This document shows, piece after piece, positions 33,104 through 40,864 of a DNA stretch of 64,000 nt; position 1 is the stretch's first letter, and every line of letters starts with the position of its first letter. Below the pieces are notes generated by a model. It had not been told where the DNA came from. It saw nothing but the letters and a program-made list of their open reading frames with translations, and made no database searches. This DNA comes from an uncultured Bacilli bacterium (lineage in GTDB: Bacteria > Bacillota_I > Bacilli_A > RF39 > UBA660). A program made the position numbers and the translations under genes. Location of the stretch: the NCBI GenBank assembly GCA_944332555.1, contig CALVKF010000002.1:2962-66961 (forward strand), written 5' to 3'.

Positions 33104-34219
33104 TCATTTTGAGTTGTTATTTTCATTGTCAGTTTTATTACCATGAGTATAATCTGCCGCAGCATTATTATTAGGATTATCAAAACTAAATTGTGGTGGA
33201 TTAGGATTTTCTTTATCAACTGGAGATTTAGTTTCTTTAAATGTCTCAACCATTGCTAAACTCTCAACATCTTCAGTATTACCAACTGGAGTATTTAGAG
33301 AATCAACTAGTTTTTTATCAATATTTAAAGTCTCTAAACTTTCAACATTAGCATTATTAGTTTGATTGTTAGTAACATTTAAGTTATCAACATTATTATT
33401 TGTATTTTGATTGTTAATAACTTCAGAGTTATCAACATTATTATTTGGTACATCAACAACATTACTAGTACCAGCAACGCTTTTAGGCATATGTTTAACA
33501 TCAATGTTACCTTTTTTCTTGATTAGATTTGATGCTAAAAGCAAGAAAACTAAAGCAATAAATATACCGCCACCAATTAAGATGTAATTCCAAGGTATAG
33601 GGTTTAATTTAAAATCTAAAGTTATTTCATTTGTTTTAGTTAAATCCCAAGTTAATGTTCTACCATCTTCTGATACACTAGTTGCATTGTGATTTTCTGG
33701 TTTATTTGGTAGTCTTACAACAAATAGCGCATCGATATAATCACTATATTCGCTATTTTCTTCTGAACTATAATCACTTTCGCTATCTATATAAATCTTT
33801 AGAGAATATACACCACCGCTATAAGTAAATATTTTTAAATCTTCTGTAGTCAACATCTCTTGAAGATTTTGGTTAGCATCATCACTCACCAAGGAAGAAA
33901 TATTACTAAAAGTTTTAGAAAAACTTAAACCTTTGTAAGTATCATCACTATAATGTTCTTTAACATATCCGTAATCTACCGGATTGTCTTCAGATTCATT
34001 ATACATTGTATCAATTGCTTCCCATCGTTGTTCATCAGTATAACCAGTTGCTAAATCTATTTCATCAAGCATAACATTATCAATAAATTCATCATCAAAA
34101 GCTGCAATACCTGTAATTACAACTGTTTCATCATCATTAATTGTAATATTAAATTCTTCCTTTACTGCACAACCACTAGTTAAAAGTAAAACTATAATTA
34201 AACATATAAACTTCTTCAT
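33104..34219 (-). CDS. lipoprotein with C-terminal TM helix and Asn-rich tail
   Basis: Lipobox LLLTSGC, a TM helix (ILIGGGIFIALVFLLLASNLI), and a low-complexity N/V/D tail. Confidence 0.55.
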   Translation of the reverse strand: MKKFICLIIVLLLTSGCAVKEEFNITINDDETVVITGIAAFDDEFIDNVMLDEIDLATGYTDEQRWEAIDTMYNESEDNPVDYGYVKEHYSDDTYKGLSFSKTFSNISSLVSDDANQNLQEMLTTEDLKIFTYSGGVYSLKIYIDSESDYSSEENSEYSDYIDALFVVRLPNKPENHNATSVSEDGRTLTWDLTKTNEITLDFKLNPIPWNYILIGGGIFIALVFLLLASNLIKKKGNIDVKHMPKSVAGTSNVVDVPNNNVDNSEVINNQNTNNNVDNLNVTNNQTNNANVESLETLNIDKKLVDSLNTPVGNTEDVESLAMVETFKETKSPVDKENPNPPQFSFDNPNNNAAADYTHGNKTDNENNNSK

Positions 34220-37200: not shown

Positions 37201-37561
37201 AAATAGATAAAGCATGGGTTGCAAGAGAACGAGATGCAACATGTATTACCCCCGGAAGCATTTCTCCAGCCATTTTATACATATTTGGAATCATTAGAAG
37301 TAAACCTTGAGAAGCTGTAAATGTTGAAGCTAAGCTACCTGAAAGTAGTGCTCCATGCATAGCTCCAGCTGCTCCTGCTTCAGACTCCATTTCTAAAACT
37401 TTCGGTTTATCATTAAATATATTAAGTAAATTTGTCCCTGTTAATGTATCAATATTTGCTGCCATAGGACTTGATGGCGTTATAGGATAAATACTACATA
37501 CTTCACTAAAATAATATGCTACTTTACTACATGCAGCATTTCCATCAACTATTTTTTTCAT
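34226..37561 (-). CDS. nifJ: pyruvate:ferredoxin (flavodoxin) oxidoreductase
   Basis: About 1110 aa. Two ferredoxin-type clusters (CIQCGMCALSCP and CTGCGVCANVCP) and the TPP motif GGDGWAYDIGYGGLDH. Start taken at the second ATG (37561), 9 nt after GGAG. Confidence 0.9.
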   Translation of the reverse strand: MKKIVDGNAACSKVAYYFSEVCSIYPITPSSPMAANIDTLTGTNLLNIFNDKPKVLEMESEAGAAGAMHGALLSGSLASTFTASQGLLLMIPNMYKMAGEMLPGVIHVASRSLATHALSIFGDHQDIYATRATGFCMLASSSVNDAQNLAAVAHLSAIKGSLPFLHFFDGFRTSHELNTVEEIPEDKLLSLVDYDKINEFKDRCLNVGKKYQYGMSETEDIYFQTMEARNKYYDAMPDIVNDYMTKINEIMHTDYKPFNYYGGEHAKNIIVAMGSVTSTIKEVVKKLGDVGLIEVHLYRPFSAKYFREVLPKSVKRIAVLDRTKESGSVGEPLYLDVCSVLKNEDIEIYGGRYGLSSKNTTPSDICGVFKMLAESPHHNFTIGITDDVTNLSIKPCPITIDNDYKEIQIYGFGSDGMVSASKDILKIVHESLDKYVQGYFQYDSKKSGGVTVSNLRYGDSPIDEPYYVTHPEITVVTKDVYFKMFDMISNLKNGGILLINTIKNKDELLKLLPNKVKNAINSKNIKVYFINAEDIAMKNHIPGKISKIMELLILKLLDVENAFDYIKTSVEKAFASKGEDVVNNNIKAMIDAENKLESLEVTGDYNTSIEIVDDNLIDLINRRLGDTLPVSSLASYENGRFPGGSTKDEKRNISNIIPVWHKENCIQCGMCALSCPHAVIRSITTVDEAKGIPFMGQDGLYYEILISEEDCTGCGVCANVCPGKMGNKALVMEEKTEKEKLNFEDFYPFKNPLNKFTVKGSQLERPLFEFSGACAGCGETPYIKLLTQLFGEKLVIANATGCSSIYGGSTPSTPYSIPWANSLFEDNAEFALGIYTSYKQKRDRIAHIMEEAIDSVEKGEQELFKDWLENREDFEKTLEIKEKLKNKTIPKELVDLLDYIPARSVWAIGGDGWAYDIGYGGLDHVLHSNENIKVLVLDTEVYSNTGGQASKATKLGAIAEFANMGKRTNKKDLFKIATCVPNCYVASIALGANMQQAINAFKEAEEHQGPAIIIAYSPCIEQGIKTGMGTSILEEKLSVECGYNILMRYDSGLKIDSAKPNFDKYEEFLDNEVRFNALKLKNPELAKEILAEQKENAIKRYEDYQKMLNKE

Positions 37562-37736
37562 GTTTATCATCTCCGTACTATATTAATTATACCTTAAAAT
37601 TGCGAAATTGAAAATAAAACATGCAAAAAAAATTAAAATGTGAAGTGAAAAAATTAAAAAACGACAATTTACTATTGATTAATTTTTTATTTATGATAAA
37701 CTATATTTAGAAAGGACTTTTATGGTGCAGGGGGTA

Positions 37737-37765
37737 TTGACATCGATACTAATTTATAGTACAAT
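37737..37765 (+). promoter_or_regulatory. sigma-A-type promoter of the Abi-like gene
   Basis: TTGACA(37737-37742)-17 nt-TACAAT(37760-37765). Confidence 0.6.
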
Positions 37766-37778
37766 AATTATGTATTGA

Positions 37779-37814
37779 TCTTCGGTATCCCGTGTGGACC
37801 GAAGACGTTTTTTT
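37779..37814 (+). promoter_or_regulatory. 5' leader hairpin plus U7 (terminator/attenuator-like), ending at the start codon
   Basis: 8-bp stem TCTTCGGT/ACCGAAGA (37779-37786, 37798-37805), 11-nt loop ATCCCGTGTGG, then CG plus T7 (37808-37814) abutting ATG 37815. Confidence 0.6.
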
Positions 37815-38780
37815 ATGAAAGATTTTAAATTAGTAACAGAACAAGTCGATTTATTAAAATCAAGAGGTATGTTATTTGAAGATGAACAAGATGCTATATG
37901 TAAGTTATTAAGTGATAACTATTATAATATAATTAATGGATATAAAGACTTGTTTTTAGATACTACTAACAATCAAGAGGTGTTTAAAACCGGTACAACT
38001 TTTAATGAGATATATGCATTATATGAATTTGATAATCAATTAAAAAATATTTTTTTAGAATATATTTTAAAAATTGAAAACATTTTAAGAACTCAAGTAG
38101 CATATCATTTTTCAAGCTTTCACGGAAATGATAATTATTTAAAAATTGATAACTTTGATACTTTTTCATATAATACTTTTATCAACCCTAATCTAAAAGA
38201 AAAACAAATTAAACATATACAATTGTTAATCAGCAATTTAAACAAAAAAATTGCTGATTCGATAAGTAGTACTAAATATATTAATCATTATATCATGAAT
38301 TACGGTTTTATACCTTTATGGGTACTAGTTAATATTTTATCTTTCGGAGATATTTGCAATTTTTATAAATTAATGAATCAAAATGAAAGAATTCATATAA
38401 CAATGTTTTGGGGAATTAGCGATAATGACTTAAAGAGTTTTTTAGGAATCCTATGTCACACAAGAAATTTATGCGCACACAATGAAAGACTTTTTAATTA
38501 TAGCTTTCCTACTAGAGAAACTATAAATGATACAAATTATCACAATTTATTAAATATTCCATCAATAAATAATAGATTTCAATATGGAAAAAATGATTTA
38601 TTTGCTGTAATGATTGTGTTAAAAACATTACTTACTAAAGAAGACTATCAAAAATTTCATTCAAAGATTTACAGCCGATTAAAAAGTATTGAATCAAAAA
38701 TTAAAACGATTTCTTTGAATGACATTCTGGTAGCAATGAATTTCCCGTATAACTGGCATAGTTTATTAAAAATGTCCTAA
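37815..38780 (+). CDS. Abi_2 (AbiD/AbiF-like) abortive-infection family protein
   Basis: MKDFKLVTEQVDLLKSRGMLFEDEQDAICKLLSDNYYNIINGYKDLF... and ..LCHTRNLCAHNERLFN match the Abi-like (PF07751-type) N-terminus and the conserved R-N-x-x-A-H motif. The GTG start at 37794 in the ORF track lies inside the leader hairpin. Confidence 0.65.
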   Translation: MKDFKLVTEQVDLLKSRGMLFEDEQDAICKLLSDNYYNIINGYKDLFLDTTNNQEVFKTGTTFNEIYALYEFDNQLKNIFLEYILKIENILRTQVAYHFSSFHGNDNYLKIDNFDTFSYNTFINPNLKEKQIKHIQLLISNLNKKIADSISSTKYINHYIMNYGFIPLWVLVNILSFGDICNFYKLMNQNERIHITMFWGISDNDLKSFLGILCHTRNLCAHNERLFNYSFPTRETINDTNYHNLLNIPSINNRFQYGKNDLFAVMIVLKTLLTKEDYQKFHSKIYSRLKSIESKIKTISLNDILVAMNFPYNWHSLLKMS

Positions 38781-38800
38781 GTCCACACGGGATACTTAGG
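38776..38800 (+). promoter_or_regulatory. 3' hairpin whose loop is the reverse complement of the 5' leader loop
   Basis: Stem CCTAAGT/ACTTAGG and loop CCACACGGGAT. The TAA stop (38778-38780) lies within the stem. Confidence 0.6.
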
Positions 38801-38865
38801 ATCATTATAAGTATATACAAAATAAATACTATTATTACCAAAACTATATTCCAACCATTTTATAT

Positions 38866-38900
38866 AAAAAGTAGGTTAATTTTCAAACCTACTTATTTTT
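38866..38900. terminator. bidirectional intrinsic terminator (Abi-like gene / eno)
   Basis: Stem AGTAGGTT/AACCTACT (38870-38877, 38886-38893) flanked by an A-run and a T-run. Overlaps the eno stop codon. Confidence 0.6.
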
Positions 38901-40124
38901 ATTAAGTTTTTCTTCAATTCGAAGTAATTGATTGTATTTAGCAATTCTCTCTCCTCTACACATTGAACCGGTTTTAATAAATGGAATTGCTAAACCTACC
39001 GCTAAATCAGCAATAAATGTATCTTCAGTTTCCCCACTTCTGTGAGATATAATTGTTTTATAATTATTCTTTTTAGCAAGTAGTATTGTTTTAGTCATTT
39101 CAGTGATTGTACCTACTTGATTAGCCTTTAAAAGGATTGCATTACCAGCTTTCATATCAATACCCTTTTGTAAATATTTAACATTCGTTACAAAATAATC
39201 ATCACCAACAATCATTATTTTGTCTCCAACTTCTGCCGTAAATTTTTGAAGTGTCACAAAATCATCTTCATAGAATGGATCTTCAATACTTAATATTGGA
39301 TATCTTTTAATTAAACTTTTATAATATTCTATTAATTCGTCACTATTTAATTTCTTGCCATCAATACTATAGGTTTTAGTATCTTTATCATACATTTCAC
39401 TAGCAGCAACATCTAGGGCAATAAATACTTCTTCTCCAGGTTTATATCCCGCTTTTTTTATAGCTTCAACAATAAATTCTAGAGCCATAGCATTATTTTC
39501 TAAATCTGGAGCAAAACCACCTTCATCACCAACACCAACACTATAGTTATTTTTAACAAGTAGTTTCTTTAATTCATGAAATATTTCTGAACCCGCTCTC
39601 ACCCGTTCTTTTATTGTTTTAACTACTGGTACAATCATAAATTCTTGAATATCTATATTATTTACAGCATGAGCCCCACCATTAATGATATTAATCATTG
39701 GAATTGGCATAGAAACATTTTTACTAGAAACATATTCAAACAAATCTTTTTTTTCAGATTCCGCTAGACACTTAAGACATGCAAGGGATACTCCTAAGAT
39801 GGCATTAGCTCCCAATTTACTTTTATTTTCGGTTCCATCAAGTTCAATTAATATTTTATCAACATCAGCTTGATTAGCTTTTTTACCAAGAAGTGCTGGA
39901 GCAATAATTTTATTAACATTTTCAACAGCCTTTAGAACTCCTTTACCACCATATCTAGCTTCATCTTTGTCTCTTAGTTCCAAAGCTTCACGTGATCCAG
40001 TTGATGCCCCACTAGGGACACTTGCTCGCATTTTTACATTATTATCTAGAGTCATTTCTACTTCAACTGTAGGATTTCCTCTACTATCTAAAATTTCTCT
40101 TGCTTTAACATCTTTAATTAACAT
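38889..40124 (-). CDS. eno: enolase
   Basis: [24 protein letters not shown]..., SHRSGETED. Start taken at 40124 behind GAGGTGAT. Confidence 0.95.
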
Positions 40125-40191
40125 TTTTTTATCACCTCGTATAACAAGTATATCACAAATCAAAAAAATCTGCATCCCTGCAGACTTAATT

Positions 40192-40779
40192 TTACCAAAA
40201 TATATCCATTATTTCTTTGGCTTTAGTTTTAAATGTTATCGCATCACTTAAATTAATTATTCCACTAATAATTAGAAAAGCTCCAGTTATTTGGGTTAAG
40301 GCAAATGCCGTAAATGGGTTGAAGACTATCATTATCCCAAGAATAACTAAAAGTATTCCTGCAACTAGTGTAACAAGCCAAGCTTTACTTCCCCCACGTT
40401 TAAGCCATAAACCATAATTAATTTCTGTAGCACCATTAACAACTAAAAATAATCCAAGACATACTGTTACAAATTCAATAACACTAAATGGAAATATTAT
40501 TATTACTAAACCAAGTATTAAATAAAGAATAGCAAATACTAAATTTAAAGAATAAATTTTAGCTCCATCTCTCTTTAAATACTTATATGCGGTAGTTATT
40601 CCAAAGATAATAAATATTACCCCAGTAATTATACCTACAACCTTATTAGATAAATTAGGTAAAAATAATAACACAATACCAACTATAATAGTAATAATTG
40701 CTGAAATAATTGAAAATATAACCATTTTGTTATAAACATGTTCAATACTCTTTTTAAATGGAGTAGCCATATACATCAC
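40192..40779 (-). CDS. HdeD/DUF308-like membrane protein
   Basis: Six TM helices with the repeated G(I/V)xxxxxG(I/L) pattern typical of DUF308. Confidence 0.45.
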
Positions 40780-40864
40780 CCTAATATAATTGTAAATGTT
40801 TATTTAAAAGTTGTCAATCACTTTTAAATATGATATAATTTATTCTTAAATGTGGGAGGTAAAT

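Follow-up and report, generated by a model that had tools for sequence, protein, structure and literature searches.

AbiF proteins are HEPN ribonucleases (RNases) that serve as the toxins of type III toxin-antitoxin systems, in which a non-coding RNA (ncRNA) encoded upstream of the toxin gene blocks the HEPN site (PMC12373285; PMC12737573; PMC13064643). In the Prevotellaceae system, each monomer of the AbiF dimer binds one copy of the cognate RNA, two in all, and a single-stranded bulge blocks the active site (PMC12737573; PMC13064643). In the AbiF(Cd) system of C. difficile phage, a SigA promoter drives RCd22, made up of two RF03085 hairpins and a terminator, and abiF follows; most transcripts stop and some read through (PMC12373285). 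RCd22 RNA binds AbiF and neutralises it in cis as well as in trans; both hairpin motifs are required, and the stem is needed, with compensatory changes in it tolerated (PMC12373285). Here we analyse an abiF/abiD locus in a 64,000-nucleotide (nt) stretch of DNA from an uncultured Bacilli bacterium (contig CALVKF010000002.1, positions 2,962 to 66,961; hereafter the window), where the gene carries one hairpin unit on either side: U, directly upstream on the plus strand, and D, across the stop codon on the minus strand. The sequence makes it probable that the locus forms an RNA-antitoxin module of the AbiF type, its toxin gene lying between two convergent copies of the antitoxin hairpin unit, D acting as a second antitoxin small RNA (sRNA). 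The elements of this compact, type III-like toxin-antitoxin or abortive infection module, which would span ~1.1 kb (roughly 37731-38841), are the following:

37737-37765, plus strand: promoter P_U, sigma-70-type, with TTGACA (37737-37742), a 17-nt spacer and TACAAT (37760-37765); 11 of 12 matches in a promoter scan.
37775-37813, plus strand: U unit, with stem 37779-37786 / 37798-37805, a bulge, CC/GG pairs, a GUGU tetraloop and a U-tract.
37815-38780, plus strand: abiF/abiD, predicted HEPN RNase toxin of the Abi_2 family (Pfam, PADLOC and homology to PDB 8VZ6).
38767-38805, minus strand: D unit, with a tGA flank, stem 38801-38794 / 38782-38775, a bulge/CC-GUGU-GG loop, GAC and five U; it overlaps the abiF stop codon.
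38804-38841, minus strand: putative promoter P_D, with TTGGTA (38841-38836), 18 nt and TATATA (38817-38812), or else TATAAT (38809-38804).
Stem-specific sequences that tell the two copies apart: UCUUCGGU for U and UCCUAAGU for D.

The product of the gene (321 amino acids; ATG at 37815, TAA at 38778-38780) matches Pfam Abi_2 (PF07751) with an E value of 8.7e-45 and 153.7 bits, against a curated cut-off of 25.6, and PADLOC calls it AbiD (E 3e-59), in agreement with the family named in a preliminary description of this DNA. A search finds 1255 homologues, and the protein matches PbAbiF (PDB 8VZ6) at E 2.3e-15. The HEPN Rx4H motif, R217-N-L-C-A-H222 (RNLCAH), is invariant across 17 homologues, and R217 and H222 align to the catalytic R210 and H215 of PbAbiF, arginine and histidine residues of AbiF that have been reported as essential (PMC12373285). 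The same description had called the gene stand-alone; it is instead part of a compact toxin-RNA module.

The locus resembles PbAbiF-AbiFr (Zilberzwige-Tal et al., Cell 2025; via PMC12373285 and PMC12737573) in having a HEPN Abi_2 toxin with the catalytic R/H pair and a cis-encoded structured ncRNA directly upstream, a likeness drawn from the protein and from the published description. It differs from the system so described in that the window hairpin carries its own U-tract and abuts the ATG, and in that the stop codon is covered by another, inverted copy. With AbiF(Cd)-RCd22 the window shares the order of promoter, structured RNA, terminator-like element and abiF. However, RCd22 has two tandem RF03085 hairpins on the same strand (with a 3' CAAAU internal loop), a separate terminator and a ribosome-binding site, whereas the window hairpins belong to another class and their two copies lie on opposite strands, either side of the gene. 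ToxIN and AbiQ-antiQ likewise combine a strong promoter, a repeated antitoxin RNA, a terminator limiting toxin transcription, an RNA-inhibited RNase toxin and abortive infection, but their toxins have a different fold and their antitoxin is a tandem direct-repeat array cut by the toxin, not a pair of convergent single hairpins. Expression of the AbiD/F-family protein AbiD1 of L. lactis is said, in 2009 work of Bidnenko et al. (cited in PMC13064643), to be limited by the structure of its 5' leader; the accounts consulted make no mention of a downstream inverted copy. By homology with PbAbiF-AbiFr (PDB 8VZ6) and C. difficile AbiF-RCd22, the window hairpin is most likely an RNA antitoxin bound by AbiF itself.

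The abiF gene is flanked by a 40-nt inverted repeat (37773-37812 and 38768-38807) of 80% complementarity, whose arms differ in the stem at three positions, all of them as compensatory pairs. Inside it lies the 15-nt core GTATCCCGTGTGGAC, of which the 64 kb contain just two copies, at 37785-37799 on the plus strand and at 38781-38795 on the minus strand, against a chance level of 0.2 matches in shuffled sequence with three mismatches allowed; the two cores are perfect reverse complements, as had been noticed before. The repeat also spans the 5' tGA flank and the T-tract, which indicates that the whole unit is inverted, not the loop alone. In U, TCTTCGGT (37779-37786) pairs with ACCGAAGA (37798-37805) across 11 nt and is followed by CG, seven T (37808-37814) and the ATG at 37815. 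In D, the stem is formed by TCCTAAGT (38775-38782) and ACTTAGGA (38794-38801), and the stop codon lies within its 5' arm. Folding of both hairpins on both strands gives four versions of −11.3 to −13.2 kcal/mol. The 11 nt between the arms are predicted to pair internally, as a 3-nt 5' bulge, a CC/GG helix of 2-3 bp and a tetraloop, a fold with which covariation agrees. The preliminary description is thus correct in placing 11 nt between the arms, but its open 11-nt loops are probably not open. Its other structural points hold: the TTGACA-17-TACAAT promoter, a terminator-like leader hairpin behind this strong promoter with seven U ending at the ATG, the missing Shine-Dalgarno sequence (there is no GGAG-type sequence between leader hairpin and ATG) and the second hairpin across the stop codon.

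For comparison, ~250 related loci (denoted by L numbers below) were gathered from genomes, viral contigs and metagenomes, and a covariance model, R1, was built from U hairpins alone and run over both strands of ~850 kb of these loci. R1 scores the window U at 54.2 bits (E 8e-15). In relatives of at least 35% identity (>150 loci), a U hairpin adjoins abiF on its 5' side on the plus strand, behind a TTGACA-17-TATAAT promoter. Nearly all related loci keep the GGGTATTGACA-17-TAnAAT arrangement, and in 24 of 30 non-redundant loci 11 nt separate the end of the −10 box from the U unit. Across an alignment of 35 homologous U hairpins, 98% of cells are paired, five of the seven lower pairs show compensatory changes, and the wobbles amount to 17 U.G or G.U cells on the plus strand. 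The bulge reads UAU, UUA or UGU (3 nt, 5'), the inner helix is CC(C)/GG(G), replaced by UC/GA in L047 and L054-L055, and the tetraloop is GUGU, UUCG, GUUG or GUGC. The CUUUUU tract that follows the hairpin is invariant. With a minimum free energy (MFE) of −11.3 kcal/mol and seven U, the window U has the features of an intrinsic terminator or attenuator; the terminator scan makes no call there because its loop limit is 8 nt.

Several features of leaders vary among the relatives. In the clade of at least 60% identity (window 37806-37817 and the L013-L024 leaders), the U-tract runs right up to the ATG and a Shine-Dalgarno sequence is missing, while relatives at 42-50% identity have a GGAG 8-25 nt after the U-tract; the neighbouring PFOR gene also has a GGAG. 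Tandem copies of the upstream hairpin, ~55-60 nt apart, are present at L053:1337-1463 and L060:1324-1455, one of the two loci being from Terrisporobacter, and their layout recalls both the two-motif RCd22 and a repeat-spacer-repeat arrangement. At L071:123-2453, an inserted open reading frame (ORF) resembling a transposase (355 amino acids, 429-1496) separates the leader hairpin (123-161) from abiF, which is split into pieces of 78 and 136 amino acids; this decaying locus still keeps its D hairpin.

The U hairpin is, to judge by its sequence and predicted fold, a class that probably doubles as a terminator and is distinct from the abiF motif of Rfam. The RF03085 covariance model has no hit at E<=10 in window 37400-39000, nor any in L059 or L060. 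As a positive control, it matches twice upstream of phiC2 abiF (L171:9014-9101), with 37.6 and 19.5 bits; the gathering score, 37, is attained by the second copy alone. R1, for its part, finds no match in phiC2. Since RF03085 misses the window and R1 misses phiC2, U would represent a second structural class of AbiD/F leader RNA. Rfam scans of the window region and 17 related loci return chance hits and tRNAs only, C. difficile phages are not near the top of the matches in tblastn searches of phages, and abiF goes unmentioned in the main text of the 2017 motif paper.

D is likewise a conserved unit. R1, although built without it, recovers the window D on the minus strand only, over its full length (positions 1-39, tGA flank and T-tract included), with 42.3 bits and an E value of 1e-10. 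A full-length match of this kind on the minus strand, at or no more than 6 nt from the stop codon, is found in 34 of the 39 assessable genome loci of at least 42% identity, plus matching metagenome loci; D holds the equivalent place in >40 loci of this clade, which is gut Bacilli/Erysipelotrichales-like. The R1 search finds no D in relatives below 42% identity, and L261 (46%) also has none. The T-tract of D persists where the unit lies past the stop codon (L034, L048 and L220). On which strand does D fold? Among 23 distinct D sequences, 93.2% of cells are paired on the minus strand, nine of them as G.U, against 88.9% and no G.U on the plus strand, where the nine wobbles turn into A.C mismatches. 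These wobbles arose in at least six events, in the lower stem (L033, L042/L257 and L255) and in the upper helix (L175, L176 and L023/25). Read on the minus strand, D of L253 has a GAGA tetraloop. The substitution pattern points to D working as a minus-strand RNA.

A promoter-like signal precedes D on the same strand. In 21 of 35 non-redundant loci, the positions −11 to −6 hold a (C/T)ATAAT box that ends 6 nt before D (typical background 1-6), a TGTATT block lies 17 nt upstream of this −10-like box, and a G stands at −33 in 15 of 30 loci, against a background of 9%. The minus-strand flanks 5' of D are otherwise unalignable among loci. The spacing of the boxes would place a transcription start at the first bases of the D unit. 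Genes downstream of abiF in the 35 loci lie on the plus strand in 15 cases and on the minus strand in 20; because they run in either direction, D RNA cannot in general stem from transcripts that read through from a neighbouring gene. The −10 box alone was rejected as a marker of strand, being nearly palindromic, and the argument is carried by two bases, a C at −11, which is asymmetric, and the G at −33, together with locus L183, where the unit is flipped.

In L183 (1560-1665), two tandem D-type hairpins with CCTAAG stems stand downstream of the stop codon in direct orientation, on the plus strand, preceded on that strand by AGGTAT-18-CATATT-8; motif and hairpins both being on the plus strand, they appear to have been flipped together. 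At L050:1380-2680, from a Coprobacillus metagenome-assembled genome (MAG), the leader hairpin of abiF is missing. Instead, 155 nt downstream of the gene there is a complete, solitary unit, TTGACT-17-TATCAT-hairpin-T8, on the plus strand at 2635-2673, and an inverted D without a T-tract lies at 2452-2480. Together with the tandem upstream copies of L053 and L060, these variants suggest that the hairpin behaves as an autonomous small transcription unit that can change in place and orientation.

The loops of the two units are coupled. They are identical or 1-2 nt apart in about two thirds of D-bearing loci, and clade-specific variants are present in both copies of a locus (GUGC in L031, GUUG in L048, UUA...GGG in L034 and CCUAYGCGG in L043). 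Such co-occurring loop variants, together with stems that differ compensatorily, uphold the earlier argument for selection on the hairpins as opposed to a recent duplication. The same substitutions also turn up in the U copy at one locus and the D copy at a different one, as with CCCG(U>C)GUGG and with CCUGUAUGG (U of L024, D of L175), which is as expected for two same-sense RNAs recognised by one protein. Elsewhere, the loops differ at 3-6 of 13 positions, with both folds kept (L023/25, L026/40/42/45/257, L033, L039, L051, L176 and L252), for example by a change of CC/GG to CG/CG in D only.

Several observations weigh against D as a second antitoxin sRNA. P_D is weak in the window itself: TATATA lacks the final T, and the promoter scan makes no call; the alternative TATAAT (38809-38804) is only 1 nt from the D unit, so that a start would fall inside the stem. 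The −10-like motif of D, rich in AT and close to a palindrome, can also be read on the plus strand, where it occurs at one position in up to 19 of 35 loci. By MFE, the two strands of D are favoured in 11 loci each, with no significant difference overall (p 0.67), and only the large differences (L033, L042 and L176) favour the minus strand. The U-tract of D is short (five U) and lies mostly inside coding sequence rich in lysine codons (K-M/K-S-stop), and a constraint on the protein may thus account for some of its conservation. In about one third of lineages, the D loop is unlike that of U at 3-6 positions, and D may bind AbiF less well there if loop sequence is read. Finally, the constant position of D at the stop codon is left without account if the two hairpins are simply two antitoxins.

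The pair of hairpins recalls hok/sok, with its fold-back inhibition (fbi), and CopA/CopT, in which the complementary 5' and 3' ends of a toxin mRNA, or kissing hairpin loops as the first contact, are at work, and the preliminary description had offered a 5'-3' kissing loop in the abiF mRNA as one role for the hairpins. Pairing within that mRNA, or of free leader RNA with its 3' end, would control read-through, translation termination or stability. The perfect complementarity over 15 nt in the window would suit it, as would the similarity of the loops in two thirds of D-bearing loci, the parallel variants of L031, L034, L048 and L043 despite stem differences, and D being always at the stop codon; several single differences are, moreover, G.U-compatible on the plus strand (L014, L017 and L021). 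A bias towards plus-strand wobble among single loop differences had seemed to add to this, but was dropped when an impression of 8:3 fell to about 9 compatible against 6 incompatible with more loci. A comparison of homologous loci shows that loop complementarity is not maintained throughout: it is kept in about two thirds of the D-bearing loci but broken at 3-6 of 13 positions in several lineages, each with its fold kept. In hok/sok and CopA/CopT terms, the window differs in that the evidence points to its 3' element acting on the opposite strand, and its complementarity is not kept in many relatives. The D stem wobbles are all on the minus strand (nine G.U against none), the loops are internally structured by bulge, helix and tetraloop, the downstream copies of L183 share the sense of U, and kissing leaves no role for the conserved 5' flank, the T-tract or the promoter-like motif. 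The strand bias, this motif, the rearrangements and the loop divergence make a conserved plus-strand loop-loop interaction unlikely, and we give the kissing reading little credence.

Somewhat less improbable, though still unlikely, is that D does no more than terminate or insulate on the minus strand, or that it is an inverted leader duplicate in slow decay; it would then shield abiF from antisense transcription without serving as an antitoxin. D does have a hairpin and T-tract on the minus strand, eno lies downstream in convergent orientation in the window, P_D there is weak, and D has diverged or lost its T-tract in L050, L252 and L035-37. A plain terminator would nevertheless have no need of the bulge, the CC-GG helix and tetraloop, or of loop sequences that vary in step with the U loops across clades; in 15 of 35 loci the downstream gene runs the same way as abiF, a conserved promoter-like motif stands upstream of D, and between eno and D a bidirectional terminator is already present in the window. 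The proposal that a mobile one-gene cassette is bounded by the hairpins, acting either as its terminal inverted repeats or as sites for recombination of single strands (attC-, IS200/IS605- or REP-like), can draw on the 40-nt inverted repeat around a defence gene inserted between core genes, on a genomic context that varies among loci, with tRNA genes near some, and on the different left junction of L003 at 37726. That junction lies 50 nt outside the hairpin, however, and conserved sequence continues for 35-50 nt outside each hairpin, as far as GGGTATTGACA on the left side and TGTATT on the right, which means that the unit does not end at the hairpins. The window has no gene for a recombinase or transposase next to the module, and relatives of <42% identity without D are equally scattered. 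A dispersed genomic repeat is rejected as well, with two copies in the window and none away from abiF in the ~850 kb searched. A cassette of this kind is therefore very improbable. Least probable of all is that the 15-bp cores are double-stranded DNA operators through which a regulator loops the DNA and represses abiF. The cores are identical and inverted on either side of the gene, as this would have it; yet compensatory and wobble changes in the stems speak of selection on a folded single strand, the module holds no regulator gene, and the upstream site lies within the transcript, downstream of the promoter. Among the three roles first suggested for the hairpins, that of sites for a DNA- or RNA-binding regulator nonetheless comes closest in its RNA-binding half, with AbiF itself, by homology, as the likely regulator; its DNA half runs counter to the stem covariation.

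If the two hairpins are convergent antitoxin units, the module could work as follows. The abiF gene would encode the HEPN RNase toxin. P_U would transcribe a hairpin RNA of ~40 nt with a U-tract, most transcripts stopping there to become free antitoxin RNA, and rare read-through would yield an abiF mRNA whose whole leader is the hairpin. This read-through mRNA having no Shine-Dalgarno sequence, poor translation is to be expected, with a further block if AbiF binds its own leader. D would be transcribed on the minus strand from its own weak promoter, ending at the U-tract within the last abiF codons, and would supply a second copy of the hairpin to an AbiF dimer that binds two RNAs; its transcription would also fire convergently into the toxin gene. 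On phage infection, decay of the labile RNA would release the toxin. Of these steps, we infer that D is transcribed, that AbiF is bound and neutralised by one RNA or the other, that transcripts end at the U-tracts and that the toxin is released. The plus-strand complementarity of the loops would then follow from two same-sense hairpins on opposite strands, with loops held alike by one AbiF.

Alternatively, the system might be a type I/III hybrid, in which the RNA that sequesters AbiF also anneals to the 3' end of the abiF mRNA. Free U (through its loop, over 13-15 nt) and D (over its full length) are both complementary to the stop-codon region of this mRNA, and annealing could trigger cleavage or disturb translation termination. 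Such a hybrid would account for D at the stop codon; we hold it to be a minor possibility. U would be a new structural class in a known kind of system and the inverted D, as far as the comparison reached, a new architectural variant.

The gene lies, as described earlier, between PFOR and enolase (eno), with a DUF308 gene and FemAB as further neighbours, and one more element closes the interval on the enolase side:

38869-38894, both strands: bidirectional intrinsic terminator found by a terminator scan, with a 9-bp stem, an 8-nt loop and T-tracts on both sides.

Located between enolase and the downstream hairpin D, this terminator is probably common to abiF (plus strand) and eno (minus strand) and would set the 3' end of the abiF mRNA past D. 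Downstream of PFOR, an ORF of 371 amino acids (33104-34219, minus strand) has no Pfam match at E<=1e-5. A protein identical to the window AbiF occurs in 79 blocks of the assembly collection, nearly all on contigs of <5 kb, though one is on an 84-kb MAG contig; assemblies seem to break near the abiF module, which may reflect strain variation. The metagenomic contig L003 is 99.4% identical to window 37726-40809, and its left 76 nt (L003:1-76) are unrelated. The junction at 37726, which is 11 nt upstream of the −35 box, may mark where the module begins on its left side, or it may reflect a rearrangement in that strain. tRNA genes adjoin the abiF module at L013:2613-2768, L028:1017-1170 and L047:1096-1185.

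AbiD/F proteins are among the commonest abortive-infection genes of Firmicutes and have been proposed as ancestors of Cas13, with the antitoxin RNA as a forerunner of the CRISPR RNA (crRNA) repeat. In Lachnospiraceae, Clostridia, Bacilli and their phages, a large branch of the family comes with a U-type hairpin, which the abiF model of Rfam misses. In the clade that includes the window, the toxin gene would be bracketed by copies of the RNA on opposite strands, and natural variants carry the extra copy flipped, in tandem or standing alone. Mobility and duplication of the hairpin unit are the raw material to be expected on the way from a fixed antitoxin to a repeat array. Annotation of Abi_2 as a single gene overlooks its RNA partners, and the ORF cloned without them is likely to be toxic.

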